From an uncultured bacterium (GTDB lineage Bacteria > Patescibacteriota > Patescibacteriia > UBA1558 > GWA2-36-10), in contig CALMZN010000019.1 in NCBI GenBank assembly GCA_937870675.1, positions 1 through 42,045 of the forward strand: a DNA stretch of 42,045 bases, given 5' to 3'. The notes below the pieces were generated by a model. That model saw nothing but the letters and a program-made list of their open reading frames with translations, was not told the DNA's origin and made no database searches. Positions 15,181 through 38,724 of the stretch are shown here, in pieces. Position 1 is the stretch's first letter, and each line of letters opens with the position of its first letter. The translations under genes and the position numbers were made by a program.

Positions 15181-15969
15181 TTATAATCTATTAAAATAAT
15201 TAGTAGCCGCTAATTTTGTTTTGAAGTGCAAGGCATCCTTGATGTTTAGATTTTTGGCGCCTTGCATTTTGAGCTGGTAGGCCAAAGTATTGCGTAAAAT
15301 CTGTGGCGTCACTTTGAGGCGTGGACGCAAAACATAAGCATATTTTTCAATGAGGCGTTCTACAGAGCGGACTGACAAATGGGTATCGCCGGCTTTTTTA
15401 CTGCGGTCAAAGTTGATAAATAAATAAGGATTTTTGTCACGGCGAAAATTTAAGTATTTTTCCAAGTAGTGCAGAGCGTAAGGTGGCAAGCTTAAATGTT
15501 TATTTTTAATAATAATCTCACGGCTCAAAAAATCCACTTGTTCTTTTTTTATATTGACCAAATCACTGACCTTCAAACCGCTGACATACAGTATTTCCAG
15601 CAAGGCCTTGTCACGGAAGCCCAATAAATTTTTTTTCTTCAAGGGTTGATCCAAAAAATTTTGTAGCTGTACTGGATCCATGGCTTTTAATCTATTTTTT
15701 TCTTGGGAAAGCAAGATAAAGGAATATTTTATATTCAAAAAATTTAAGTAGTTGTTGAGAATGACGAAGCGCAGATTGATACTGCCAATATTTTTTTGCT
15801 GGCTTAGTAAAAAATGGTTATATTTTTTTAAAATGTGGGTGGTGATTTTTTTGTCTTCGGTCCATAGCAAAAAATGTCGTATATGCCACAAGTAATTTTT
15901 GATAGTGCTTGGTTTTAAGTCGCGACTTTTTAAATATAGTCGATATTTGTTTAGAGAGGTTTTGTCCAT
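15181..15969 (-). CDS. tyrosine recombinase, XerC/XerD-like (short, 262 aa)
   Basis: N-terminal SAM-like core-binding domain (TIKNYLWHIRHFLLW). The catalytic region has FRDKALLEILYVSGLKVSDL (Arg), TPQILRNTLAYQL (the xxLR box with Gln in place of the usual His) and LHFKTKLAATNYF (His..Tyr). Confidence 0.8.
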   Translation of the reverse strand: MDKTSLNKYRLYLKSRDLKPSTIKNYLWHIRHFLLWTEDKKITTHILKKYNHFLLSQQKNIGSINLRFVILNNYLNFLNIKYSFILLSQEKNRLKAMDPVQLQNFLDQPLKKKNLLGFRDKALLEILYVSGLKVSDLVNIKKEQVDFLSREIIIKNKHLSLPPYALHYLEKYLNFRRDKNPYLFINFDRSKKAGDTHLSVRSVERLIEKYAYVLRPRLKVTPQILRNTLAYQLKMQGAKNLNIKDALHFKTKLAATNYFNRL

Positions 15970-18972: not shown

Positions 18973-20334
18973 GTGGTCACTGAAAAAGAGCCAACCCAAA
19001 GATTTACTTTATTGCCAAGTAAAGCTTGGTGGCTTTTTTTGGGTGTTTTTATTTTAGGAATAGCGGCTATGCTCTTGATGCCCCAAAAATCCAGCCAGCC
19101 ACTACTCATGTATTTGCCCCAAAATACTACTTTTTATTATCACTGGTCTGATCTAGCCACTTACAAAAGCTTGGATATTAACAAATTGGCTATTATAGAC
19201 ACTACCGAGCCGACAGACAAGATAGACGAACTAAAAAGTTTGTTATTGGATGGCATATTTTCCACCAAAGAAGTTGTGTGGTTTAAAACTGATGCTTTGA
19301 GTGATGATAATTTTATACTGCGCTTGGATAATGCCCAGCAGGTGACCAAATGGCTGACAGTCAATCGCCCAGAGTATAATTATTTATTAATTGACAAGGA
19401 TATTTTGTTGATCAGCGCTGACTCGTGGCTATCCAGCCACTACAGTGAACAGCCAAGAATGGAAGTGGTTAACAATAATATGTCTTTGGGTATTAATATT
19501 TTTTGGTCCAAAAATAATACGCCCGAGTTTTTGTCGGCTCTGACTGAGTGGTTGAAACTAGACACTGGTTTGCCAAATATTTACGCCAATATCTACCAAC
19601 AAAAAGACGGACAATCAAACATCCATATTTGGCAGGTGAAATTAAGACAAGTAATCAATGCTAGTAGCACTGACGCTTGGTCAAATAAAGCTAATTTTCC
19701 GCTAGGTGCTGATTTGATTCTTGGTTTTGGTGAACACGCTCCGGACAAATGGCAAGTCATAGTCAGTCAGAGTATTTTACAGCCCTTGTTTAGTGAGTGG
19801 CCATATTATCGGCTGTCAGCCAAAAAAATAGAGGAGCAGATACTCAAAAATAATTATATTTATCTGGCCAATGACAAGTGGCTGATGGTTTCTAAGGAGG
19901 ATTGGCAGTCCAGGATAAATGATTGGGTGCCAAATCTTAATTTGCAAGAAACCAAAAATCGTTTACCGGATGGCACGGTTTACACCGAGTATATTAGTGG
20001 CCAAGAAGCAGTCATAGAAAAATTAAGCTACCAAGCCAAGGATTATTGGCATTTTAGCGGTCTCTATGGAGCGCAAATTGGCCCTAGTTACTATTTATCA
20101 AATAGCGAGTCAATTATTCAGGCCACTTTGGTCAGTAAGTATGATATGCAGAGTTATTTAGGTCAGTGCCAGTTAGCAGGGGATTATCAAATTATTGATT
20201 TGGTGCAGGTAAATAGTGCTAAAATCAAAGATGAAACAATTAAAAAAGCGCTATTAGATCAAAAAATAAATAATTTAACAGTATTTTCTTACGAAAATAA
20301 TCAACAAATTGGTTTTAAGGCCTGTTTTCGTTAG
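18973..20334 (+). CDS. hypothetical membrane-anchored protein
   Basis: 453-aa ORF with a GTG start listed and one N-terminal TM helix (WWLFLGVFILGIAAMLL). No recognised domain. Confidence 0.55.
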   Translation: MVTEKEPTQRFTLLPSKAWWLFLGVFILGIAAMLLMPQKSSQPLLMYLPQNTTFYYHWSDLATYKSLDINKLAIIDTTEPTDKIDELKSLLLDGIFSTKEVVWFKTDALSDDNFILRLDNAQQVTKWLTVNRPEYNYLLIDKDILLISADSWLSSHYSEQPRMEVVNNNMSLGINIFWSKNNTPEFLSALTEWLKLDTGLPNIYANIYQQKDGQSNIHIWQVKLRQVINASSTDAWSNKANFPLGADLILGFGEHAPDKWQVIVSQSILQPLFSEWPYYRLSAKKIEEQILKNNYIYLANDKWLMVSKEDWQSRINDWVPNLNLQETKNRLPDGTVYTEYISGQEAVIEKLSYQAKDYWHFSGLYGAQIGPSYYLSNSESIIQATLVSKYDMQSYLGQCQLAGDYQIIDLVQVNSAKIKDETIKKALLDQKINNLTVFSYENNQQIGFKACFR

Positions 20335-20364
20335 GAATAATTCTATAAAATTTAAAGTAAAAAA

Positions 20365-20521
20365 CCCACTGACTTTCTATGCCGTCATTCCCGCGAAAGC
20401 GGGAATCCACACTAATGTTATGAAATCATAGTGTCGTGTGGATCATCGGATCACCCGCCCACCATGACCGCCGGTCAGGCGTGTCGGGCGGGAGTCCGAT
20501 GATGACGGGAGAGTGTCAGTG
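20365..20521. repeat. GC-rich nested palindromic element forming a perfect four-way junction inside a terminator-like stem
   Basis: The outer stem ccactgac/gtcagtgg is flanked by an A6 run and a T6 run. The second stem is ccgtcat/atgacgg. Three abutting hairpins fill it: 20388-20403 (tcccgc GAAA gcggga), 20404-20442 (atccacac..gtgtggat) and 20443-20500 (catcgga..cccgccc..gggcggg..tccgatg). Confidence 0.75.
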
Positions 20522-20590
20522 GTTTTTTAAATCATCTTCTACACAGGCCTAGAACTTAAAAAATAGCCATAAATAGGCACTTTTGTGCTT

Positions 20591-20627
20591 GCACCGTAAA
20601 ACAGGTCGCGGAGCGACGTTTTACGGT
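20591..20627. repeat. long GC-containing hairpin (11 bp + 5 bp)
   Basis: caccgtaaaac ag gtcgc gga gcgac gttttacggtg. The core gcggagcgac is shared with the element at 22517-22526. Confidence 0.75.
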
Positions 20628-20655
20628 GTGGATAACTTGTTGATAGTTGTGGATT
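20626..20655. promoter_or_regulatory. two direct DnaA-box-like 9-mers
   Basis: TGTGGATAA at 20626-20634 is a perfect reverse complement of TTATCCACA. TGTGGATTA at 20647-20655 has one mismatch. Confidence 0.35.
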
Positions 20656-20724
20656 ATTTTGATAAAGTTGTCAATAATCAGAAAAATAGCTAATTATTTT
20701 TGCTAATTTTAGCAAAGTATTAGC

Positions 20725-20753
20725 TTTGACACAAAGGTAAAAATATGATATAC
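20725..20753 (+). promoter_or_regulatory. consensus sigma-70 promoter with extended -10, no ORF behind it for about 470 nt
   Basis: TTGACA (20725-20730), a 17-nt spacer, then TGATATACT (-10 TATACT at 20748-20753). Confidence 0.6.
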
Positions 20754-20759
20754 TTATAT

Positions 20760-21150
20760 TGTTGATAAATAAGTACCTTAAAACAATACTTTAGAACTGT
20801 ACATTACTTGTGATAAAGTAGTGTCTAGCTCTAAGAGCTTCACTGTTTTGATTTATCAAGCCACCGACGCTTGAAAAAGCAAAAACAAAAACAAAATACA
20901 AAAAGGAGAATCCTGTTGTCGGATAGGCAACGAGATATTTCCACTAAATGGTGGAGTTCTACAATGATTCTGAGTCGGAATGAATCACAATGACGTTTTC
21001 ACAACAACATATGCTAAAGTTTCAAGCCAATTGAACTTACAGACGCAATAAAAATGCGTCACAAGCTATCGTGAAGACGCTACGGGGCGCACTTACGGCC
21101 CACGAAGCTAACGCTATTAGGGGTGCTCGGATGCGTCCTGTTTGTTTTGT
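20760..21150 (+). ncRNA. candidate structured noncoding transcript or long leader of the DksA-like gene
   Basis: Lies downstream of the consensus promoter. Contains the closing stem ttgataaat (20761-20769)/atttatcaa (20850-20858), an inner hairpin agctc taa gagct, a CA-rich tract, the hairpin gacgca..tgcgtc (21041-21059), and a gacgc..gcgtc stem followed by ctgtttgttttgtc. No ORF of 60 aa or more on this strand. Confidence 0.3.
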
Positions 21151-21228
21151 CAAAATTTTCAATACCCCTAAATTCTTGCCAAATTGCCCGATATTTGCTA
21201 TCATTCTTTGGTAATTAAAACCCAAGCC

Positions 21229-21591
21229 ATGACAGTTGACACTAAATTTTTGGAAAATAGAAAAAGCGAATTAGAAAAAAGGCGCGATGAAATACTGCGT
21301 GAATTAAACGTGGACACCATCCAGGTGGCGGACAATGATTATAGCGCCAAATTTATTGATTATGGCGACAAAGAAGATGAAAATGCGGCTGAAGTAGCTG
21401 ACTTTGAGAAAAATTTGTCTTTAGAAAAAACCTTGGAAATTTCCCTGTACAATGTAAATAAGGCCTTAAAGAAAATAGATGAGGGCAATTATGGTTTGTG
21501 TGAAGTTTGCGCCAAGCCCATTGATCCCAAGCGCTTGGAGGCCTTTCCTTCAGCCACTGCTTGTATGAATTGCAAGAAAAAATCTTTATAA
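21229..21591 (+). CDS. DksA/TraR-family C4 zinc-finger protein
   Basis: MTVDTKFLENRKSELEKRRDEIL coiled coil, then CEVCAKPIDPKRLEAFPSATACMNCKKK. ATG 21229 is preferred over the listed 21184. Confidence 0.78.
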   Translation: MTVDTKFLENRKSELEKRRDEILRELNVDTIQVADNDYSAKFIDYGDKEDENAAEVADFEKNLSLEKTLEISLYNVNKALKKIDEGNYGLCEVCAKPIDPKRLEAFPSATACMNCKKKSL

Positions 21592-21595
21592 AATT

Positions 21596-22012
21596 ATGTG
21601 TAAATACTATTTAGGATGTTTGAGCTTAATAATCCTGGATAGATTCTTAAAAATATTTTTTGTAAAAACACTGTCTGAAGGTGGCAGTGTTTTTGCTTTG
21701 TATATCAATAAAAACATCGCTTTTTCCTTGCCCCTGCCCAGCGTAATATTATATCCGATTCTAGTTATTATATTTTTTTTGTTAGTTTGGTTTTGGCTGA
21801 AGGACTGGCAGGGAGCCAAAAAATATATTTGGCCCTATGCTTTGGTAATAATTGGCGCGGCTAGCAATATCTGGGATCGCCTCTGGTATGGCGGAGTAGT
21901 GGACTACTTTAATGTGCCATATTTTACTGTGCTAAATTTAAGTGATGTTTATATTTTCTTGGGAGTGTGCTATTTTTTAGTAAGACAATTAAAAAAACAA
22001 AAATATGACTAA
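21596..22012 (+). CDS. lspA: lipoprotein signal peptidase (signal peptidase II)
   Basis: GAASNIWDRLWYGGVVDYFNV matches the N..DR...G.VVD motifs of LspA. About 4 TM helices. Confidence 0.8.
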   Translation: MCKYYLGCLSLIILDRFLKIFFVKTLSEGGSVFALYINKNIAFSLPLPSVILYPILVIIFFLLVWFWLKDWQGAKKYIWPYALVIIGAASNIWDRLWYGGVVDYFNVPYFTVLNLSDVYIFLGVCYFLVRQLKKQKYD

Positions 22013-22481
22013 CAAAAGTATTGTTAAATTATTTAGTTCAGTGCTTATTTGCTTGGGTGCCGGGTTTATTGGCTCATTTTTTACTACTCCGCAGATTGCG
22101 GGTTGGTATCAGACGCTTAACAAGCCCACTTGGAACCCGCCGTCTTGGCTTTTTGGACCAGTGTGGACTACGCTTTTCATCCTGATGGGCATTGCTTTGT
22201 ATCTGGTCTGGCAAAAAGCTAGCCACTCCAAAAGCGCTCGCCAGGCCACGATATTTTTCTTAGTACACTTGCTGTTTAATATATTTTGGTCAGTATTATT
22301 TTTTGGGCTACACAATCCTTTTTATGCTTTTTTAGAAATCATTGTTTTGTGGCTCATGATTTTGACCTTGATTATTTGGTTTTTCAAGCTTGATAAAAAA
22401 GCTGGCAGTTTGCTAGTCCCTTATCTGCTGTGGGTCAGCTTTGCCGGCTATTTGAACTATACAATTTGGCAGTTGAATTAA
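22005..22481 (+). CDS. tspO: TspO/MBR tryptophan-rich sensory protein
   Basis: WYQTLNKPTWNPPSWLFGPVWTTLFILMG and PYLLWVSFAGYLNYTIW, with five TM helices. Confidence 0.87.
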   Translation: MTNKSIVKLFSSVLICLGAGFIGSFFTTPQIAGWYQTLNKPTWNPPSWLFGPVWTTLFILMGIALYLVWQKASHSKSARQATIFFLVHLLFNIFWSVLFFGLHNPFYAFLEIIVLWLMILTLIIWFFKLDKKAGSLLVPYLLWVSFAGYLNYTIWQLN

Positions 22482-22501
22482 AAAATCGCTATTTTTTTGT
22501 T

Positions 22502-22603
22502 GTCATTCTGGAAGGAGCGGAGCGACTGATAGAATCTACGTCAATTTAAAGGAGTGGATTCTATCGCTTCGTCGCGTCAGACGCGACGAAGCGATAGAAT
22601 GAC
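22502..22603. repeat. GC-rich palindromic element (19-bp perfect hairpin plus an extra arm copy)
   Basis: attctatcgcttcgtcgcg tcaga cgcgacgaagcgatagaat spans 22558-22600. The upstream partial arm gatagaatc is at 22528-22536. The outer pairing is gtcattct (22502-22509) with agaatgac (22596-22603). Confidence 0.75.
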
Positions 22604-22690
22604 CTTGCTGAAGCGGTTTTTTTGTCCCCTTGACTTCCCTTTCAGAGTCGGAGTAAAATGCACTCAAGAAAAAGAAAAGCGATTTTTATT

Positions 22691-24253
22691 ATGGCTAACA
22701 TTTATACAGTTGCTGTTTTGGGTCTCAAAGGCAACCTAGTAGAAGTAGAGACCAATTTGTCTAGGCACTTGCCCAAGGTTATTATTGTTGGTTTGCCTGA
22801 TACAGCCGTGCAAGAGGCCAGAGAAAGGGTCTGGGCCGCTATTGAAAATAGCGGTTTTGTGTTTCCCCGACAAAAAGTCGTGATCAATCTAGCGCCAGCC
22901 CAAGTTCAAAAAAGCGGTGGAGCTTATGACCTATCTATGGCTATTAGTGTCTTACAAGCGAGTGGAGAGTTAAAATTAATTTCTGAACCAACCGCTTTTA
23001 TTGGCGAGCTGTCTTTGACTGGTCTAGTCAAAGCCGTGCCCGGAGTCATGGTCATGGTGGCGGCTTTGAAAGAATTTGGTTTCCAAAATATATTTGTACC
23101 CCAAAAAAATGTCAAAGAAGCCAGCGTGATTGAGGGTGTCAATATTTACGCCATCAATAATCTAGCCCAACTAATACGACATTTGAATGGCCAGCAAAAA
23201 ATTGAACCCCAAGCGCCAGTAGTTTTTTATAATGAGCCCAGCCAAGCAACCTTTGATTTTCAAGAAGTCCATGGTCAGGCACAAGCCAAGCGGGCCTTGG
23301 AAATAGCGGCTGTTGGCGGACACAACATTTTGCTGGTCGGGCCTCCGGGGTCTGGCAAGACCATGCTCGCCAAAAGTTTTTTGTCTATCTTGCCGCCACT
23401 ATCACTGGACGAGGCCTTGGCCGTCAGCAAGATACACAGCTTGGCTGGACTTTTGACTGAAGAAAATCATCTAGTGCGTAGTAGATTTTTGCGTAGTCCG
23501 CATCACTCGGCTTCAGTGTCAGCCATTGTCGGTGGTGGCACTTACCCCAAACCCGGAGAAATATCTTTGGCTCATCGCAATGTTTTATTTTTGGATGAAA
23601 TTTTGGAATTTCCTCGAGCAGTACTGGAGGCCTTGCGCCAACCCTTGGAAGACAAAATAATCACTGTCTCGCGCATCAAGGGTTCGGTTGATTATCCGGC
23701 TGATTTTATTTTTTTGGCCACGGCCAATCCTTGCCCTTGTGGCTACCTGACTGACCCCAGTCACGAGTGCCACTGCACGCCAATGGAAATATCCAAATAC
23801 AGGAAAAAATTATCAGGACCATTACTTGATCGCATTGATTTGCACTTGAATGTGGCTAGAGTAAAAAGCCATGAGTTGATAAGTAATCCTTCAACTGGAT
23901 TTGACTACGCTCACCACCAGTCACTCGCGGTCGGAAAAAATTCAGCCGAAAGCTCCAAAGAAATTTTGGCGCGCGTGATTTCCGCTAGACAACGACAAGC
24001 AGATCGTCAGCCAGATAATTTATTAAACAGCGACCTGCCACCAAAGTTGATAAAAAAATATTGTGTTTTGTCATCTAGCAATCAGCGACTGCTACTGACG
24101 GCCACTGAGAAAATGCAATTATCAGCCAGAGCTTATTACAAGATTTTGAAAGTAGCTCGAACTATTGCGGATCTAGCAAGTAGTCAAAATATTGAAGAAG
24201 AGTATATTTTGGAAGCCCTGCAGTATCGTAATAAAATATGGTCGGAGCTGTAA
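22691..24253 (+). CDS. comM: Mg-chelatase-like AAA+ protein YifB/ComM
   Basis: N-terminal Lon-protease-like domain (MANIYTVAVLGLKG..), Walker A GPPGSGKT, LFLDEILEF, and a C-terminal ChlI-type domain. The listed start at 22658 lies in the promoter region. Confidence 0.9.
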   Translation: MANIYTVAVLGLKGNLVEVETNLSRHLPKVIIVGLPDTAVQEARERVWAAIENSGFVFPRQKVVINLAPAQVQKSGGAYDLSMAISVLQASGELKLISEPTAFIGELSLTGLVKAVPGVMVMVAALKEFGFQNIFVPQKNVKEASVIEGVNIYAINNLAQLIRHLNGQQKIEPQAPVVFYNEPSQATFDFQEVHGQAQAKRALEIAAVGGHNILLVGPPGSGKTMLAKSFLSILPPLSLDEALAVSKIHSLAGLLTEENHLVRSRFLRSPHHSASVSAIVGGGTYPKPGEISLAHRNVLFLDEILEFPRAVLEALRQPLEDKIITVSRIKGSVDYPADFIFLATANPCPCGYLTDPSHECHCTPMEISKYRKKLSGPLLDRIDLHLNVARVKSHELISNPSTGFDYAHHQSLAVGKNSAESSKEILARVISARQRQADRQPDNLLNSDLPPKLIKKYCVLSSSNQRLLLTATEKMQLSARAYYKILKVARTIADLASSQNIEEEYILEALQYRNKIWSEL

Positions 24254-29921: not shown

Positions 29922-29929
29922 ATAATATA

Positions 29930-29978
29930 GTTAAAAGTTTAAAGTTAAAAGTTTAAAGTTTAAAATTAAAAGTTTAAA
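29930..29978. repeat. seven contiguous direct heptads GTTWAAA immediately upstream of clpP
   Basis: gttaaaa gtttaaa gttaaaa gtttaaa gtttaaa attaaaa gtttaaa. The run begins 9 nt from the clpP start codon at 29921. Confidence 0.85.
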
Positions 29979-30020
29979 GTTTCAGCCAGAGGCTGATCGC
30001 CCACAGGGCGAAAAAGTAAA

Positions 30021-30986: not shown

Positions 30987-31110
30987 AACAAAATATTATA
31001 GCGGAAGTTTGCTATGGAGTCAATGCTATAAAAACCACCTCTTAGTGAAGTGGTTTCTGATGGAGTTTTATGTAAATGTTGGTTATAAATTGATTTTCAA
31101 ATATAATGAA

Positions 31111-31581
31111 TTATTTGGCATGTTTAATTTCATTAACTTTATTAACGACGTTCTTTAGTGGCAACATTCTTTTCCTCACAAATTTTTCAATATATATAAT
31201 AACCTCATCTTTTGCCTCTGGTGGACTTTGCGCTACCCAAACTGCAAAATTATACAATTCTGTGTCATCAGCAAATATCCATTTTTCATTCAAATATAAA
31301 AAAACTAATAAAGTAGTCATGGCTACTCTTTTATTACCATTTTGAAATGGGTGATTTTTTATCAACAAATAAAAAAGAACAGCCGCTTTTCCAATGAGAC
31401 CCTTGTAAAGAATTTTTCCATCGTATTTTAGGAATGGCATTGCCACGCAACTTTCTAAAATATTTGGCGTCCGTGTTTCAAATGGCGGGATTGGTTGATC
31501 CCATCTTAATGTATTTCTAGCCAAACTGTGGGCTACATTTTGTATAATCTGAATATTAATATTTCTAATTTGTTTTGACAT
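31111..31581 (-). CDS. doc: Fic/Doc-family toxin (death-on-curing type)
   Basis: The KNHPFQNGNKRVAMTTLLVFL motif (HxFx[D/N]GNKR) is present. 156 aa, starting 3 nt after a small HTH gene. Confidence 0.8.
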   Translation of the reverse strand: MSKQIRNINIQIIQNVAHSLARNTLRWDQPIPPFETRTPNILESCVAMPFLKYDGKILYKGLIGKAAVLFYLLIKNHPFQNGNKRVAMTTLLVFLYLNEKWIFADDTELYNFAVWVAQSPPEAKDEVIIYIEKFVRKRMLPLKNVVNKVNEIKHAK

Positions 31582-31584
31582 AAA

Positions 31585-31854
31585 TTATTCTTTACCTAAT
31601 TTTTGCAAAACACTACCATAATCATTAATAACCCTTACAACAGCCGTATCTATTTCTTTTTTGATTTTATCTGACAACTCTCCCAAAAAATAACTTTCTA
31701 TATTCTCATAAGGAATAATATAATTACGGCCAATTTTTTTTGCTTTAATTTGACCTTTTTTTATTCTATTAAAAATAGTTATTCTGCTGACTCCCAACAA
31801 ATCAGCGAATTCTTGTGTGGTGTAATATTTTTTAATTGTTATAGGGGTTTCCAT
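31585..31854 (-). CDS. HTH (excisionase/MerR-like, HTH_17) DNA-binding protein, putative antitoxin
   Basis: YYTTQEFADLLGVSRITIFNRIKKGQIKAKKIGRNYIIP. 89 aa, immediately upstream of doc, with a palindromic operator upstream. Confidence 0.7.
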   Translation of the reverse strand: METPITIKKYYTTQEFADLLGVSRITIFNRIKKGQIKAKKIGRNYIIPYENIESYFLGELSDKIKKEIDTAVVRVINDYGSVLQKLGKE

Positions 31855-31877
31855 ATTTTTTGTTAATATCTATAATA

Positions 31878-31897
31878 ATATTAACATATGTTAATAT
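31878..31897. promoter_or_regulatory. 20-bp perfect palindrome, candidate operator of the HTH-doc operon
   Basis: ATATTAAC ATAT GTTAATAT, plus an extra half-site GTTAATAT at 31862-31869. It lies between the minus-strand -10 (TATAAT, 31931-31926) and the start codon at 31854. Confidence 0.55.
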
Positions 31898-31968
31898 GAT
31901 TGTCAACACTTAACACAATATGTATATTATACCTAATATTAGCTTAAAAAATAAGTTTATTTCAAACC

Positions 31969-34304: not shown

Positions 34305-34457
34305 TTTTTGTTATATTAGCCCATAATTTACTATATTTTAAAGAAAAAGTCAAGGAAAATAGTAGGTCTAACTTTACATATTTTGCCAAATATATCTTGT
34401 AAATATTGACATTTGTTCCAAATTGATATAAATTTAGTAGTTAAAAACAAGATAAAA

Positions 34458-35567
34458 ATGGAAATTCCCGTTAAAGAATTAAATAATTTGTTGTCAAAAG
34501 CTAATAATATTTTGATTACTGGGCAACAAGATCCCTCTATTGATATTGTAGCCACTGCTTGCGCTTGGCAGATTTTTTTGCGCGAACAAAATAAACAGGC
34601 CGATATTTGTTTGACTGGCAAATATCAGCTTTGGGATTTTTTGCCTAGCACATTGGCCATAAAAAATAATTTAGATGAGGCCAATAAGTTCCAAATAATT
34701 TTGGATGTAAGCAAGGTGAAAGTAAAACAACTTAGTTATGATTTGATTGGTGATGAATTGCGAATAAATATTTTGCCAGAGAACGGCAATTTCGAAAGTC
34801 GCAATGTCAAGACCGAAAAAGGCGATTTAGTTTATGACTTGATCATTACTTTGGGAGCGAGTGGGCTTGAGTCCTTGGGTAGCACTTTTTTTGAACATCG
34901 AGATTTTTTTAATAATACCGACATCATCAATATTGACCGCTCTATCTTGAATGAAAATTTTGGTCAATTGAATGTGGTAGAACTCAGCTCTTCTTCGCTT
35001 GCGGAAATAAGTTATTATTTTTTTCAGGACAATATAAGCAAAGACCTGGCCACCTGTCTTTTGGCGGGCATTATTAGCGCTACCAATAGTTTTCAATCGC
35101 CCTTGGTGACACCAGCGCTTTTGGAGATCGCTAGCCAGCTGATAATCAAAGGAGCGGCTCGACAAAAAATAATTGAAGAGCTTTATCGCACCAAGGATAT
35201 TGCGACGCTGAAAAATTGGGGTCGCATCTTATCTCGCTTGAAACAACGGGGGAGAATAATATTTTCCTATTTAGAGCATGGTGACATGGATACTCTGCCT
35301 CAAGATTTTCAGGGATTAGTCAAAGATCTTATTTTGTCCACGCCAGAGACACAAGTAGCCATAATATTTTATCAAGTAGAGTTGGAAAAAACTGAGGCCT
35401 GGATTTATTCTACGGAAAATATAAATGCTCTTGATTTGGTTAGGGATTTGAGTCCCCAAGGTAGCAAGAATTTGGTCAAATTAACCATTGATCATAATTT
35501 GGAAAAATCCAAAGAACTTTTGGCCACTAGAATATCGGAGGCCATAAAATTTTTGGGGCATAATTAA
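34458..35567 (+). CDS. DHH/DHHA1-fold protein with degenerate catalytic motifs (pseudo-enzyme paralog of NrnA)
   Basis: Same length and layout as the 30021..30986 product. DGD is replaced by SID (GQQDPSIDIVATA), DHH by DRS (NIDRSIL) and DTGGF by ATNSF, and there is no GGGH. ATG 34458 is preferred over the listed 34413. Confidence 0.7.
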   Translation: MEIPVKELNNLLSKANNILITGQQDPSIDIVATACAWQIFLREQNKQADICLTGKYQLWDFLPSTLAIKNNLDEANKFQIILDVSKVKVKQLSYDLIGDELRINILPENGNFESRNVKTEKGDLVYDLIITLGASGLESLGSTFFEHRDFFNNTDIINIDRSILNENFGQLNVVELSSSSLAEISYYFFQDNISKDLATCLLAGIISATNSFQSPLVTPALLEIASQLIIKGAARQKIIEELYRTKDIATLKNWGRILSRLKQRGRIIFSYLEHGDMDTLPQDFQGLVKDLILSTPETQVAIIFYQVELEKTEAWIYSTENINALDLVRDLSPQGSKNLVKLTIDHNLEKSKELLATRISEAIKFLGHN

Positions 35568-35672
35568 GGCGCTTCACAAAACACTAAACTTTAATTATAA
35601 TATCTGCATCAAGAGTATTTTTAAATTTTTTAATATTGTCTGTCGCTGGGGGGCATATAGCTCAGTCGGTTA

Positions 35673-35692
35673 CCTGCCTGCCGGCAGGCAGG
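35673..35692. repeat. 20-nt perfect GC-rich palindrome inserted in the D-loop of the interrupted tRNA
   Basis: cctgcctgcc ggcaggcagg lies between ggtta and gagc. The nested intact tRNA reads ggttagagc at this point. Confidence 0.85.
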
Positions 35693-35706
35693 GAGCACGA
35701 CTCTTA

Positions 35707-35879
35707 CCCGCCTGCCTAAGCCGAACCACCGAACTTTAATTTTATATTTTTGTATGGGTATATAGCTCAGTCGGTTAGAGCACGACTCTTATAAAGTCGG
35801 GGTCCCTGGTTCAAGTCCAGGTATACCCACCATACTTTTTTAGATTATATAATCCGCGGTGCTTAGTTCGGCGGGCAGG
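35707..35879 (+). mobile_element. 173-nt insertion in the anticodon loop, bounded by imperfect GC-rich inverted repeats and carrying a complete tRNA gene
   Basis: The left arm is cccgcctgcctaagccgaaccaccg (35707-35731). The right arm is cggtgcttagttcggcgggcagg (35857-35879). Its termini resemble the D-loop palindrome (ccYgcctgcc ... ggcRggcagg). No target duplication is evident. Confidence 0.5.
35756..35832 (+). tRNA. tRNA-Ile (anticodon TAT), CCA encoded
   Basis: Manual fold: gggtata ta gctc agtcggtta gagc a cgact cTTATAa agtcg gggtc cctgg ttcaagt ccagg tataccc a cca. The body resembles the bacterial minor tRNA-Ile (ileX type), but with T34 instead of C34. Confidence 0.85.
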
Positions 35880-35937
35880 TAAAGTCGGGGTCGATGGTTC
35901 AAGTCCATCTATGCCCACCAGCGGCGGATACATATAA

Positions 35938-36007
35938 CACGACTCTTACCTGTCCTCCGTAGCCGAGAGTAGCGAGGCGCAGGAGGATAAAGTCGGGGTC
36001 GATGGTT
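35938..36007 (+). pseudogene. partial third tRNA copy (positions ~24-55) with a 39-nt insertion at the same anticodon-loop site
   Basis: cacgactctta [cctgtcctcc...aggagga] taaagtcggggtcgatggtt. It carries the T-stem variant gatgg of the interrupted gene. There is no D-arm or acceptor, and homology stops in the T-loop. Confidence 0.6.
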
Positions 36008-36058
36008 TCCCGCTTTGGGCTGGGACCCCGCCGTAGGCGGTGGCAAGTCCCAGCGGGA
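36008..36058. repeat. GC-rich three-tier hairpin at the break point in the T-loop of the partial tRNA copy
   Basis: tcccgc tttggg ctggga cc ccgcc gta ggcgg tggcaag tcccag c gcggga. Confidence 0.7.
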
Positions 36059-36135
36059 CGACCAGCAAATTATAGACTGTTTAGGCAGTTTTTTTGTTTA
36101 TTTAACAGGGTGAATATGCTAGAATTAAGCCAACT

Positions 36136-38724
36136 ATGAAAGATGTCTTGGACAAAAAACTAGAATACTTTGCCACGCTTGAGGCGCTGGAAGTTTTGTC
36201 ATTGCTAGACAGCAGTGAAAAGGGATTAGCAGAAAGCACAACTCTGAAACGCCATGCCGCTTATGGCTACAACACCATTGAAGAAAGGAAAGAGCGCAAT
36301 GTTGTTTTGGAGTTTCTTTCATATTTCAAAAGTCCGCTGATAATTATTTTACTGATAGTGTCAGCCATCTCGGCTTATTTGGGTGAAATAAAAAATGCCG
36401 TTATTGTGGCTGTCATGATACTGCTGAGCGTGATTTTGGATTTTTTTGAGGAGCGAAATGCCGGACAAGCGGCCAAGCGCTTGAAAGAAAAAGTGCGCAC
36501 CATGGTCACGGTCATTCGTGATGGTCAGAAAAAAGAAGTCAAGGCCTCTCAAATATGTATTGGCGATATTGTTTGTGTCAGCGCCGGAAATTTGGTGCCA
36601 GCTGACGCGCGCATTATTGACTCCAAAGATCTTTATGTCAATCAGTCGTCTTTGACCGGAGAGTCCTACCCCAACAGCAAAGATAAAAATATTTTGCGTG
36701 GTCAGGAATTGGCTTTGGTGGACTTGAGCAACATAATTTTTGCGGGCACTAGCGTAGTGAGCGGTTCGGCCACAGCCGTGGTAGTCAAAATTGGCAACCA
36801 AACCGAATTTGGGCAGATAGCTGACAAATTAGCCAAAAAAGAAGAGAAGAGTGAATTTGAAATTGGAGTCACAAAATTTGGCTACTTCATAATGAAGGTG
36901 ATCATTTTTTTGGTGCTCTTTATTTTTTTATTTAACTCTCTAATCAATCGCCACATCTTGGAGTCATTTATGTTTGCTATTGCCGTAGCGGTGGGTGTGA
37001 CACCAGAGTTGTTGCCCATGATCATGTCTATCACTATGGCTCGTGGCTCCTTGAAAATGTCCAAAAAAGGAGTAATCGTTAAAAAATTAACGGCTATTCC
37101 AAATTTTGGTAGTATGGATATTCTCTGCACTGACAAGACAGGCACTTTGACTGAGGACAAAATTGTTCTAGTGACTTACACAAATTTGGCTGGCGAAAAT
37201 GACGAGCAAGTTTTGAAATATACTTATCTCAACGGCTATTTTCAAACCGGAGTCAAAAATCCACTGGACGAAGCTATTGTTAATTTCAAAAAAATAGCAA
37301 TTACTCATTACAAAAAAATTGATGAAATACCTTTTGATTTTAACAGGCGCCTGATGAGTGTGGTGGTTGATGGGGAGGGGGACAGGTTGCTAATCACCAA
37401 AGGTGCGCCGGAAGAAATTTTTAAAAAATGTCAGACATTAAAGCAAGGGAAAAAAGCCGTGCATTTTGGCAAAGTTTGGCAAAAGAAGGCCAAAGAATAT
37501 TATGAAAATTTAAGTAAAGATGGCTATCGTGTCTTGGCCGTGGCTATCAAAAAATTTGATAATAAAAAAAAGTCATACAGCAAGCAAGATGAGAATGATT
37601 TGGAGCTCTGCGGTTTTGTGGCTTTTCTTGATCCGCCACGCCGTGGCTTGAAACAGGTCTTGGAAGAATTGCGTAATGTGGGGGTACGCGTCAAAGTTAT
37701 CACTGGGGACAATGAATTGGTGGCCAGCAAAATTTGCCGTGAAGTCGGTCTGACTGTGCATGGCACTATCATGGGTAGTGAAATGGAACATTTGAATGAT
37801 GATGCTTTAGGAGCCATAGTAGAAAAAACAACTATTTTTGCCAGATTTTCTCCAGAACAAAAAAACAGAGTAATCACTGCCTTGCGAGCCAATGGCCACG
37901 TGGTTGGCTATTTGGGTGATGGTATCAATGACGCGCCATCGCTCAAAGCCGCTGATGTTGGTATTTCCGTCAACAACGCAGTAGATGTGGCCAAAGAGTC
38001 AGCTGACATTGTTTTGACGCACAAAAATTTGGAAATTTTGAAAGACGGCTTGCTGGAAGGCCGTAAGGCCTTTGGCAATACCATGAAATATATCATGATG
38101 GGCTTGAGCTCCAATTTTGGTAATATGTTTAGTATGAGCTTAGTGGTATTTTTTGTGCCGTTTTTGCCGATGTTGCCAATTCAGATTTTGTTGAATAATT
38201 TTATTTATGATTTTTCGCAGGTGACCATACCGACTGACAATGTTGATCAGGATTGGTTGCAGAAACCGCGTCGTTGGAACATGCAGTTTATCAAGCGCTT
38301 TATGTTGTGGATTGGACCTATTAGTTCAATTTTTGACTTTACTACTTTTTATGTTTTGTATAGTGTTTTTCACGCTAGCCAAGCCGTATTTCAGGCCGGT
38401 TGGTTTATGGAATCCTTAGCCACCCAAACCTTAGTTATTCATTTTATTAGGACCAAGAAATTGCCGTTTATTCAGAGCCGGCCAAGCAAATATTTATTGT
38501 TTAGCACCTTGACTTGCGTGGCTCTGGGCTGGATAATACCATTTACCGCAGTGGGCAGGTATTTTCAATTTGGAAGACCGCCCTTAGCCATGGTCATGGC
38601 TATTGCCTTGATCGTGTTGGTGTATTTTGTCTTTGTGGAAATTGGTAAAAGGATATTTTATAAAAAATATGATTTTGATATAGCGGCGCATTCTGGTAAA
38701 AAAATAGTGACCGCTAGTCATTAA
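36136..38724 (+). CDS. mgtA: magnesium-translocating P-type ATPase (MgtA-like)
   Basis: CTDKTGTLTEDK phosphorylation site, TGDN, GDGINDAPSLKAADVGISV, and a C-terminal NFGNMFS / LLNNFIYD segment typical of MgtA/MgtB. Confidence 0.9.
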   Translation: MKDVLDKKLEYFATLEALEVLSLLDSSEKGLAESTTLKRHAAYGYNTIEERKERNVVLEFLSYFKSPLIIILLIVSAISAYLGEIKNAVIVAVMILLSVILDFFEERNAGQAAKRLKEKVRTMVTVIRDGQKKEVKASQICIGDIVCVSAGNLVPADARIIDSKDLYVNQSSLTGESYPNSKDKNILRGQELALVDLSNIIFAGTSVVSGSATAVVVKIGNQTEFGQIADKLAKKEEKSEFEIGVTKFGYFIMKVIIFLVLFIFLFNSLINRHILESFMFAIAVAVGVTPELLPMIMSITMARGSLKMSKKGVIVKKLTAIPNFGSMDILCTDKTGTLTEDKIVLVTYTNLAGENDEQVLKYTYLNGYFQTGVKNPLDEAIVNFKKIAITHYKKIDEIPFDFNRRLMSVVVDGEGDRLLITKGAPEEIFKKCQTLKQGKKAVHFGKVWQKKAKEYYENLSKDGYRVLAVAIKKFDNKKKSYSKQDENDLELCGFVAFLDPPRRGLKQVLEELRNVGVRVKVITGDNELVASKICREVGLTVHGTIMGSEMEHLNDDALGAIVEKTTIFARFSPEQKNRVITALRANGHVVGYLGDGINDAPSLKAADVGISVNNAVDVAKESADIVLTHKNLEILKDGLLEGRKAFGNTMKYIMMGLSSNFGNMFSMSLVVFFVPFLPMLPIQILLNNFIYDFSQVTIPTDNVDQDWLQKPRRWNMQFIKRFMLWIGPISSIFDFTTFYVLYSVFHASQAVFQAGWFMESLATQTLVIHFIRTKKLPFIQSRPSKYLLFSTLTCVALGWIIPFTAVGRYFQFGRPPLAMVMAIALIVLVYFVFVEIGKRIFYKKYDFDIAAHSGKKIVTASH

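Follow-up and report, generated by a model that had tools for sequence, protein, structure and literature searches.

Several described systems come close to the locus presented herein, a transfer RNA (tRNA) gene, tRNA-Ile(UAU), that is broken up by GC-rich inserts in a 42-kb stretch of DNA from an uncultured bacterium (this whole stretch is called the window below). IS200/IS605 elements with their palindrome-associated derivatives, as well as the REP/BIME repeats with RAYT, have hairpin ends, insert 3' of a short fixed motif without target duplication, and have tiny non-autonomous derivatives; the fungal mitochondrial GC clusters or double-hairpin elements and the Rickettsia palindromic elements are short GC-rich modules that can land in RNA genes and whose stems are kept by compensatory change. 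Phage T4 has in a tRNA cluster a free-standing GIY-YIG homing endonuclease gene, that of SegB (PMC2330249); archaeal tRNA introns, their transposition and split tRNAs are treated by Fujishima et al. (2009 and 2010), taken here as cited in PMC10714607; and partial tRNA genes derived from integrases, known as attL/attR, have also been described (PMC9897764). The arrangement at the present locus is described in none of these papers, nor in that on GIY-YIG phylogenomics (PMC1564403), and full-text searches of the literature turned up neither hairpin insertions in tRNA genes of bacteria nor cassettes joining GIY-YIG genes and tRNA fragments.

Our analysis revealed that the tRNA-Ile(UAU) locus is a turnover hotspot, where the resident allele (A) has been disabled by a cassette bearing a replacement allele (B). 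Moreover, comparison with other genomes leads us to hold, with somewhat more belief than doubt, that the inserts are selfish modules at the DNA level, namely non-autonomous copies or relics of a family of mobile cassettes which target tRNA genes and are linked with a GIY-YIG nuclease gene; the copies in the window are taken as non-autonomous or as relics because the nuclease gene is missing there.

Architecture of the split tRNA-Ile(UAU) locus

The window has about 40% GC with AT-rich intergenic DNA and housekeeping genes, and its nearest relatives, as found by a scan with the flanking DHH protein, are metagenome-assembled genomes (MAGs) of Patescibacteria. The tRNA locus sits between an open reading frame (ORF) of the DHH family (34413-35567) and a P-type ATPase gene (36136-38724). 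ARAGORN and Rfam call a single tRNA-Ile(UAU) there (Rfam tRNA, 73.2 bits), which is presumably the functional copy at the locus because it is the only intact tRNA-Ile(UAU) detected in the window. A second one, of allele A (acceptor GGGCATA/TATGCCC), is wrapped around this inner gene in three pieces (Table 1). When 35673-35692 and 35707-35879 are deleted in silico, ARAGORN finds a 77-nucleotide (nt) tRNA-Ile(tat) with all stems paired, and this perfect cloverleaf is restored without a target-site duplication having to be invoked; the original prediction made from this DNA had likewise seen no need for one. Alleles A and B show compensatory differences in the acceptor and T stems, the inner tRNA is the same as the outer one across positions 5-49, and the D-loop insert interrupts a 35-nt repeat common to the two copies. 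The outer pieces are young pseudogene fragments, and the partial copy further downstream ends in the 3' strand of a third allele, of C type, and is therefore a chimera.

Four inserts, W1 to W4, are found at this locus (a caret marks a junction). W1, in the D-loop, reads GGTTA^CCTGCCTGCC GGCAGGCAGG^GAGC and consists of both 10-nt cassette termini without cargo. W2, of 173 nt and in the anticodon loop between positions 35 and 36, reads CTCTTA^CCCGCCTGCC...GGCGGGCAGG^TAAAG and is the cassette itself, made of conserved left (LT) and right (RT) ends, AT-rich spacers and the complete inner tRNA. W3, with CTCTTA^CCTGTCCTCC...GCAGGAGGA^TAAAG, occupies a site identical to that of W2, and W4, with GGTT^TCCCGC...GGCGGTGG^CAAGT, has a degenerate first hairpin and is of another sequence class than the other three. 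The junctions that the original prediction had quoted for W1, W2 and W3 are present in the sequence exactly as written, while its picture of three independent palindromic insertions with complementary termini has to be amended in several respects. The termini pair at 10/10 positions in W1 and at 9/10 in W2 (one G-T counted, one mismatch), but with only 6 bp, out of register, in the 39-nt W3. The GC-rich palindromic modules do form a family, but W2 with its complete tRNA is no simple palindrome. The three inserts are real as well, but W2 and W3 lie at the same site with look-alike ends (by eye, those of W3 resemble diverged LT and RT, the left one at about 16/20 bases), and thus they may share descent rather than represent independent events.

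Within the window, 4/5 matches to GGCRGGCAGG (at most one mismatch) lie within 210 nt of the tRNA locus. LT and RT fold together into a long helix stacked on the anticodon stem (z about -5), whose 5' side has one 4-nt bulge while the 3' side runs through without interruption.

Table 1. Features of the split tRNA-Ile(UAU) locus in the window, and loci of other genomes (numbered with L) with a hairpin-bearing partial tRNA beside a GIY-YIG ORF
Locus	Feature	Position	Strand	Recurrence or basis
Window	Outer tRNA-Ile(UAU) A, piece 1 (acceptor 5' strand to D-loop position 21)	35651..35672	+	uninterrupted in intact tRNA of L002, L004
Window	W1, 20-nt perfect palindrome, D-loop 21/22	35673..35692	+	junction and termini recur in L023 and in tRNA-Val fragment of L013; missing from L002
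Window	Outer tRNA-Ile A, piece 2 (D-stem 3' strand to anticodon position 35)	35693..35706	+	cloverleaf reconstruction
Window	LT, left end of 173-nt cassette, CCCGCCTGCCTAAGCCGAAC	35707..35726	+	conserved in L010, L013
Window	AT-rich spacer 5' of inner tRNA	35727..35755	+	not conserved; unalignable among window, L010, L013
Window	Inner intact tRNA-Ile(UAU) allele B	35756..35832	+	ARAGORN, Rfam
Window	AT-rich spacer 3' of inner tRNA	35833..35860	+	
Window	RT, right end of cassette, GCTTAGTTCGGCGGGCAGG	35861..35879	+	conserved in relatives; pairs with LT
Window	Outer tRNA-Ile A, piece 3 (position 36 to CCA)	35880..35920	+	cloverleaf reconstruction
Window	18-nt linker, common to L002	35921..35938	+	97.7% identity over 35880-36007
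Window	Partial tRNA-Ile copy (anticodon stem 5' strand and loop to position 35)	35939..35948	+	
Window	W3, 39-nt hairpin without cargo, anticodon 35/36	35949..35987	+	identical copy in L002
Window	Partial tRNA-Ile copy (position 36 to T-loop position 55)	35988..36007	+	
Window	W4, 36-nt double hairpin in T-loop	36008..36043	+	class recurs in T-loops of Ile, Pro, Leu fragments of L001, L002, L004
Window	3' end of third tRNA-Ile allele, C type, CCCAGCGGGACGACCA	36044..36064	+	matches intact C-type tRNA of L001
L001	Hairpin-bearing partial tRNA-Ala beside GIY-YIG ORF			
L003	Hairpin-bearing partial tRNA-Ile beside GIY-YIG ORF			
L005	Hairpin-bearing partial tRNA-Pro beside GIY-YIG ORF			
L008	Hairpin-bearing partial tRNA-Pro beside GIY-YIG ORF			
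L009	Hairpin-bearing partial tRNA-Ala beside GIY-YIG ORF			
L019	Hairpin-bearing partial tRNA-Ile beside GIY-YIG ORF			
L023	Hairpin-bearing partial tRNA-Met beside GIY-YIG ORF			
L024	Hairpin-bearing partial tRNA-Asn beside GIY-YIG ORF			
L028	Hairpin-bearing partial tRNA-Cys beside GIY-YIG ORF			

Rearrangement in close relatives and conserved cassette ends in distant ones

The scan with the DHH protein yielded four orthologous loci, L001-L004. In the flanking DNA the identity with the window is about 92% for L001 and about 90% for L002, yet the tRNA locus itself is fully rearranged. In L002, allele A is intact with W1 and W2 missing, and downstream follow the common linker, the W3-bearing fragment, the 3' part of B, a spacer, RT and a C-type 3' half; a nested case is also seen there, with an insert within the loop of the second stem of a double hairpin. 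In L004, A is intact as well, and after it come a spacer, RT and an A-type 3' half whose T-loop bears a double hairpin; L001 has an intact allele C and a B-type T-arm fragment carrying a double hairpin; and L003 has a C-type 5' half with a hairpin insert at TTA^TAAAG, then a small ORF and then an intact C-type tRNA. Altogether each genome has one intact tRNA-Ile(UAU) with fragments of other alleles, and the B-spacer-RT module occupies varying places on the common backbone. Because the intact allele varies among the genomes, and even among close relatives the outer 3' half joined to RT is of A type (window, L004) or of C type (L002), the inserts are gained, lost or moved within a short time scale. 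The stepwise history joining the arrangements of the window and L002 is not resolvable from two genomes, and a lookup of the window ATPase protein, aimed at strain-level alleles, found no exact match on record. A second variable spot is an AT-rich island (31037-31952, 28.8% GC), which is unalignable with L001 and L002 although both its flanks align; it holds a Fic/DOC ORF (31111-31581, minus strand).

With its chimeric fragments the locus is clearly recombinogenic, and a different account would start from here. The hairpins would then be by-products or stabilisers of recombination at repeated tRNA segments, having no dedicated mobility; they would arise or be spread by gene conversion or unequal crossing-over with paralogs and with DNA taken up from relatives, and be kept for a local role such as insulating or terminating transcription, blocking recombination between the repeats or marking sites where the neighbouring tRNA or the nuclease mRNA is processed. 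The splitting of the 35-nt repeat by W1 agrees with this account, and so does the place of RT about 17-30 nt 3' of the functional tRNA, kept even at L002, L004 and L013, where LT and the 5' half of the outer tRNA have been lost; such a place fits a function of the 3' flank. We take it to be unlikely as a whole, for reasons which appear with the target motifs and the nuclease gene below, although a non-mobile account could still explain part of the module shuffling.

By scanning metagenomes with the 19-nt RT, we obtained two further real loci, L010 and L013 (L017 is a duplicate of L013). Both are downstream of the orthologous DHH gene, at a protein identity of only 35-39%, and in both an outer 5' half ending in TTA and a 3' half beginning with TAA(A/G)G enclose LT, an intact inner tRNA-Ile(UAU) with a spacer on either side, and RT. 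LT matches at 20/20 positions in L010 and at 16/19 in L013, and RT at 19/19 in L002, L004, L010 and L013, where the TAA(A/G)G that begins a tRNA-Ile 3' half always comes directly after it; among the inner tRNAs, several stem positions have visibly diverged. L010 has another allele as its outer tRNA (GCGCGCA acceptor, CTGCT/GGCAG anticodon stem), which folds perfectly after W2 and a 36-nt T-loop insert are removed. In L013, LT is preceded by a D-loop-like GGTTA, which is what a deletion between the D-loop and anticodon inserts would be expected to leave. Moreover, L013 repeats the architecture for tRNA-Val(UAC), with a D-loop 20-mer (GGTTA^CCTGCCCGCCGGTAGCCAGG^GAG), CCTGCCC-type ends in the anticodon loop, where the insert appears to be placed at the canonical site 37/38, and an intact inner tRNA-Val. 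The same ends therefore recur at the same tRNA positions in independent assemblies. The original prediction proposed to look for presence/absence polymorphism of copies among strains and held that conservation at orthologous tRNA positions across distant relatives would speak for an intron-like feature instead. The polymorphism is borne out by the uninterrupted tRNA of L002, and for the conservation the outcome is divided, since the cassette is found with identical ends in the distant L010 and L013, whereas it is absent or partial in the closest L001, L002 and L004, with differing outer alleles.

Outside the candidate phyla radiation (CPR), RT 19-mer matches in L011, L012, L014-L016 and L018 were set aside as unrelated because the tRNA-Ile context is missing; those of L011, L014 and L016 look by eye like the antisense of a tRNA-like 3' end, where neither ARAGORN nor Rfam called a tRNA. 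Scanning of viral contigs gave no match to RT or LT, and the one match to the D-loop junction lies in a GC-rich coding region and was judged to be by chance.

The conserved helix of LT and RT is also what an RNA-level account would build on, namely that the inserts are introns of a functional outer tRNA, with the D-loop hairpin and the anticodon insert excised from the transcript and the LT:RT helix presenting the splice sites, in analogy to archaeal non-canonical introns and split tRNAs. In fact the outer tRNAs of the window and L010 are different alleles and removal of the inserts turns both into flawless cloverleaves, LT and RT show perfect conservation (the 16/19 match of LT in L013 aside) and strong pairing, and the tRNA-Val insert of L013 is apparently at a canonical intron position. 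Nevertheless we regard this account as very doubtful, since L002, L004 and L013 lack the outer 5' half or have it in degenerate form, the same hairpins are found in fragments unable to form a tRNA (L023, L019, L008), and an intact paralog with the same anticodon stands beside nearly every hairpin-bearing copy. Moreover, the predicted fold has its single 4-nt bulge and not a bulge-helix-bulge (two 3-nt bulges with 4 bp between), which was rejected for LT:RT on this basis, and there were no matches to group I or group II introns. In a search for a ribozyme core, Rfam gave only tRNA at the gathering threshold and nothing relevant at E <= 1 over 35500-36200. To our knowledge there is no bacterial tRNA splicing endonuclease, which counts against introns as well.

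Module classes, target motifs and the linked GIY-YIG gene

Partial tRNA copies with GC-rich hairpins are abundant in the tRNA clusters of the relatives. We verified 32 junction strings across the window and the relatives, which fall into three classes, and target duplication is absent at all of them. Class 1, with CCYGCC ends, stands after TTA in 9/10 left junctions, at the D-loop site 21/22 and the Ile anticodon site 35/36, the exception being a tRNA-Pro anticodon loop (CGG^); its 10-nt terminal inverted repeats pair with each other. Class 2 is a double hairpin, TCCCGC(C)-N3-(G)GCGGGA with CCCCGCC-N4-GGCGGTGG, whose target GTT^CA lies in T-loops of Ile, Pro and Leu fragments and once, as the same pentamer, in the D-stem of a tRNA-Gly. 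Class 3, a double hairpin such as TCGCCC-ACA-GGGCGA with CCGCCC-AGT-GGGCGG, is found at AG(T/A)T^GG in D-loops (17/18). The double hairpins are preceded by GTT in 16/18 cases, and every class has its own short T-rich left flank. The hairpin stems covary: in an alignment of eleven 30-nt double hairpins, 99.2% of the cells are paired and 7/12 pairs show compensatory changes, which counts in favour of the reading as selfish modules. It had been expected that the flanks are enriched in TTA and that the modules sit in hairpin loops: the former holds for the CCYGCC class, its tRNA-Pro exception aside, but not for the double hairpins, and the latter almost always (D, anticodon or T loops), but not for the tRNA-Gly D-stem, where the use of the T-loop pentamer argues for sequence-directed targeting.

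The carriers span unrelated tRNAs, Ile, Pro, Leu, Gly, Ala, Met and Val, and almost all hairpin-bearing copies examined, that of L005 excepted, have an intact paralog with the same anticodon no more than about 300 nt away; in a tRNA-Gly pseudo-copy of L004, GC hairpins stand in place of entire arms. The modules belong to a family present in Patescibacteria and in Bacteroidota/Ignavibacteria. That the same classes stand at the same short motifs in unrelated tRNAs, with only about 5 nt of common flank, which is too little for homologous recombination, and that identical 10-nt ends occur in different phyla, are both left unexplained by the account of hairpins as by-products of recombination.

In the original prediction all three junctions were read as TTAC, the target of IS608, and the inserts were linked with IS200/IS605-type Y1 transposases. 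However, the empty sites GGTTA-GAGC and CTTA-TAAAG show that the target is TTA and that the following C is part of the insert. According to such a link, a Y1 HUH transposase or RAYT with its gene elsewhere in the genome would act in trans on the modules, which would be palindrome-associated or REP/BIME-like elements. With this agree the lack of target duplication, the short left-flank motif fixed for each class and the hairpin-forming ends, as well as the double hairpin, which resembles left-end and right-end hairpins without cargo and is the only class that looks like two separate end hairpins. The orientation fits the lagging-strand template too, as the GC skew is positive across the window, so that the tRNA sense strand is probably lagging-strand template and transiently single-stranded. 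We find this account quite improbable all the same, and the link found no support: TTAC is not the target, the terminal inverted repeats of the CCYGCC class are genuine ones such as IS200/IS605 elements lack, and the gene that recurs as a neighbour is that of a GIY-YIG protein. Furthermore, Y1 (PF01797), TnpB and RAYT were not found in Pfam scans of the 37 window ORFs, where the absence of a transposase gene had been rightly noted, nor among the called genes of the fetched homolog loci. A classical miniature inverted-repeat transposable element was considered for the inverted repeats of the CCYGCC class and rejected, with target duplication at none of the 32 junctions.

Partial tRNA genes are also left by integrases, and the copies could be attL/attR remnants of integration into tRNA genes, the elements having been deleted since and the hairpins being unrelated. 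Integrases do target anticodon and T loops and leave partial 3' copies (PMC9897764), the stacked 3' halves resemble serial attR sites, and in L005 a tyrosine-recombinase gene is about 570 nt away. Such an origin is hardly credible here, because the only integrase-family ORF of the window is 20 kb away, the copies are just tens of nucleotides apart (18-60 nt), 5' fragments and D-loop breakpoints, which integrases do not produce, are common, and the sequence-conserved hairpins at the junctions would be left unexplained.

Hairpins of this kind are seen outside the tRNA genes as well. GC-rich modules within a terminator-like stem had been pointed out near 20365-20521, and a real cluster lies at 20355-20530 (plus strand; DNA fold z = -10.4), with nested GC-rich hairpins: inside a terminator-like outer stem, AAAAAACCCACTGAC...GTCAGTGGTTTTTT, lie another stem and three further hairpins. 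One of the three, TCCCGC-GAAA-GCGGGA, is of the type of the first unit of the double hairpins, and the cluster probably belongs to the same module family; it looks like hairpins inserted in hairpins, outside any tRNA. Another module is seen after tRNA CCA ends, with the form CCA^CTCGAYTCG...hairpin...CTC(A)CTCGTGGT...GACCATT (L001 7330-7385; L002 12862-12935; L005 1858-1905; L010, after the outer 3' half), where the CCA end seems to pair with a downstream CTCGTGG. It may be a fourth insertion class, at the tRNA 3' end.

The gene that recurs beside the modules is a small one. The small ORFs of L003 and L001 (11499-11756) encode GIY-YIG catalytic domains of 82-86 amino acids (PF01541, E about 1e-14), and the GIY-YIG proteins of the loci considered here have 78-102 amino acids and consist of the catalytic domain only. 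Their nearest solved relative is the UPF0213 protein BH0048 (PDB 1ZG2), and the family comprises at least 4000 clusters at 50% identity (E <= 1e-3). We examined the contexts of ten homologs, with 12 distinct loci in total; these were chosen by similarity to one already linked with a tRNA, and at 9/12 of them the intact tRNA next to the GIY-YIG ORF has a partial copy with a hairpin, no more than about 50 nt from that ORF. For example in the Flavobacteriaceae isolate Psychroserpens sp. SPM9 (L023), the sequence GGTCCCATAGCTCAGTTGGTTA^CCTGCCTACC TGGCGGTAAC GGCAGGCAGG^GAGCAC, with the junction GGTTA^, is followed by 20 nt and then the GIY-YIG ORF, and thus the junction and termini of W1 are present in another phylum. 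The truncated tRNA copy is either 5' or 3' of the ORF and ends 5-8 nt from the hairpin, at the base of the carrier arm; since this is so in both layouts, a unit of arm stem with inserted hairpins is preserved. That the hairpins stand 5' of the nuclease ORF at some loci and 3' at others means that they have no consistent role in expression, and they are without U-tracts after them, both of which speak again against hairpins kept by recombination for a local role. In a phage collection, tblastn with the GIY-YIG protein found only three weak matches (33-38% identity, unannotated).

Several details of these loci deserve attention. L028 (801-1373, on an Ignavibacteria-type contig) carries a tandem pair of GIY-YIG genes; after each of them comes a tRNA-Cys fragment with a CCCGGC..GCCGGG hairpin in place of the sequence that runs from the anticodon loop to the T-loop, and the tRNA terminator is duplicated too. 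In L027 (about 770-1060), the GIY-YIG ORF has no tRNA nearby, overlaps the end of a RhuM-family gene, and has a 13-nt direct repeat (TTTACCCCGTTAG) on both sides, which suggests that the cassette duplicates the sequence upstream of the insertion point. In L019 (1243-1252) and L023 (1240-1249), the GIY-YIG stop codon lies inside the 5' end of the intact tRNA, as the TAG of the motif xxxGTAGCTCAG, and hence RNase P cleavage of a co-transcript would remove the stop codon; such an overlap could be a means of low nuclease expression. In L001 (11286-11880), a left end CCTGCCCGCC in the anticodon loop of a tRNA-Pro 5' fragment and a right end GGCAGGGCAGGCAGG after the tRNA-Ala fragment bracket an intact tRNA-Pro, an intact tRNA-Ala and the GIY-YIG gene, and the sequence 3' of the right end weakly resembles the 3' half of tRNA-Pro; the whole may be one large cassette.

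As to other features of the window, the stretch at 20535-21183, upstream of a DksA-like gene, has about 650 nt without an ORF of at least 100 amino acids and could hold an undescribed RNA or a long leader; Rfam at a permissive threshold (E <= 1) gave no real match over 20300-22700, only tRNA or spurious ones. Two GC-rich palindromes lie at 22500-22600, upstream of a Mg-chelatase/ComM-like gene, one with perfect 21-nt arms (22558-22578 and 22580-22600) and the other, at about 22504-22536, a hairpin of the GTCATTC...GAATC type. The sole recombinase-family ORF of the window (15181-15969, minus strand; Phage_integrase, E = 4.5e-13) has no tRNA near it and may be a housekeeping Xer-type enzyme. Between clpP and a DHH/DHHA1 gene, an AT-rich unit of 21 nt (TAAAGTTAAAAGTTTAAAGTT) is repeated three times in tandem (29926-29981).

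A possible mechanism and comparison with known systems

If the inserts are indeed relics or copies of a GIY-YIG-linked family, the following course can be proposed. The nuclease of about 85 amino acids, consisting of the catalytic domain only, probably mobilises the modules, as their physical linkage suggests; it would cut tRNA genes at the short T-rich motifs TTA^, GTT^CA and AGTT^GG, which would lie in loops or arm bases of the cloverleaf that the single-stranded sense strand can fold. Its substrate is probably the tRNA gene in this folded, single-stranded state, with which the positive GC skew agrees, as it suggests that the sense strand is the lagging-strand template. Break repair or strand transfer would then copy in the modules without target duplication, whether or not they bear the nuclease gene or a replacement tRNA. 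W2 would represent the lineage carrying a replacement tRNA, and repeated invasion, together with recombination between the near-identical 5' halves, would have left the stacked, displaced 3' halves downstream.

Several points weigh against this reading. The 42-kb window itself has no GIY-YIG gene by tblastn and by the Pfam scans of its ORFs, and thus the link rests on the relatives, whose loci were selected in the way stated above; moreover, three of the 12 GIY-YIG loci (L020, L026, L027) are without a tRNA or hairpin. The share of paired cells in the alignment of double hairpins is inflated because the alignment was drawn from a search for perfect hairpins. The invariance of LT and RT across distant hosts with diverged interiors could reflect a cellular or RNA-level function of the ends and not recognition for mobility. 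Since the inner tRNA is identical to the outer one over positions 5-49, it should be an equally good target, and simple homing has an immunity problem. Finally, shuffling of the modules could do without a dedicated enzyme if tRNA paralogs undergo homologous recombination and DNA is taken up naturally. A model of immunity in which the hairpin destroys the nuclease target in the truncated copy was also considered; it is workable where the tRNA fragment is upstream of the nuclease gene, and it fails with a fragment downstream of the gene and for the window.

A bolder form of this reading, which we put forward tentatively as possible rather than probable, is that the modules are ends or miniatures of a new class of bacterial mobile elements. 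The catalytic-domain-only GIY-YIG protein would act on the single-stranded cloverleaf of the tRNA gene, cut loops and arm bases and insert hairpin-ended cargo without target duplication, and one lineage would carry a replacement tRNA, so disabling an essential single-copy tRNA gene and becoming indispensable.

If this is true, the tRNA genes of Patescibacteria, and those of some Bacteroidota and Ignavibacteria at the least, would be contested by a selfish element that is widespread and has escaped notice, as tRNA finders skip the disrupted copies and the nuclease is annotated merely as "GIY-YIG nuclease family protein". It would also explain tRNA fragments, chimeric tRNA alleles and GC-rich hairpins in AT-rich CPR genomes, which are puzzling features of MAGs, and would give the large UPF0213-like family a testable role. 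The tRNA inside a split tRNA would amount to an addiction strategy, killing the resident gene while supplying its substitute, a strategy which resembles the supposed origin of archaeal split and intron-bearing tRNAs. That the Flavobacteriaceae example is an isolate genome should ease experiments.

In comparison with the known systems, SegB is alike in being a GIY-YIG gene among tRNA genes with tRNA DNA as presumed target, and in the preferential inheritance of the nuclease gene with its flanks without target duplication. On the other hand, SegB has DNA-binding regions, whereas the present proteins have the catalytic domain only; its loci are without hairpin modules, partial tRNA duplications or a replacement tRNA inside a split tRNA, and they belong to phages, while ours are in cellular genomes. 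A GIY-YIG domain beside inserted DNA, as in Seg-like systems, is lacking in the window and is found in the relatives. With IS200/IS605 and REP/BIME, the modules share the hairpin ends, the short left motif, the lack of duplication and a plausible dependence on single-stranded DNA, but here no Y1 is found, GIY-YIG is linked, one class has terminal inverted repeats, the targets are inside tRNA genes and some modules have only 20-30 nt. By description, the modules can be set beside the fungal GC clusters and the Rickettsia elements as short GC-rich (double) hairpins scattered in an AT-rich genome, though those elements show no tie with tRNA loops or with any particular nuclease gene, and neither partial gene duplications nor replacement-gene cargo come with them. 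The archaeal introns and split tRNAs, as far as the citing article presents them, resemble our case in multiple inserts at non-canonical positions, in GC-rich complementary flanks of the halves and in inserts that seem to move between tRNAs; they act, however, at the RNA level, with a bulge-helix-bulge processed by EndA and a functional interrupted gene, while here the host is bacterial, there is no bulge-helix-bulge, an intact paralog is nearly always near and many carriers are truncated. Integrase att remnants likewise put a partial tRNA beside an intact copy with breakpoints in the anticodon and T loops, but here the copies have no integrase or integrated element between them, D-loop sites and 5' fragments are frequent, and the junctions bear conserved hairpins. 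Altogether, the arrangement combines known kinds of elements, namely homing-endonuclease cassettes and palindromic mini-elements, and there is a real chance that it represents a new element class.

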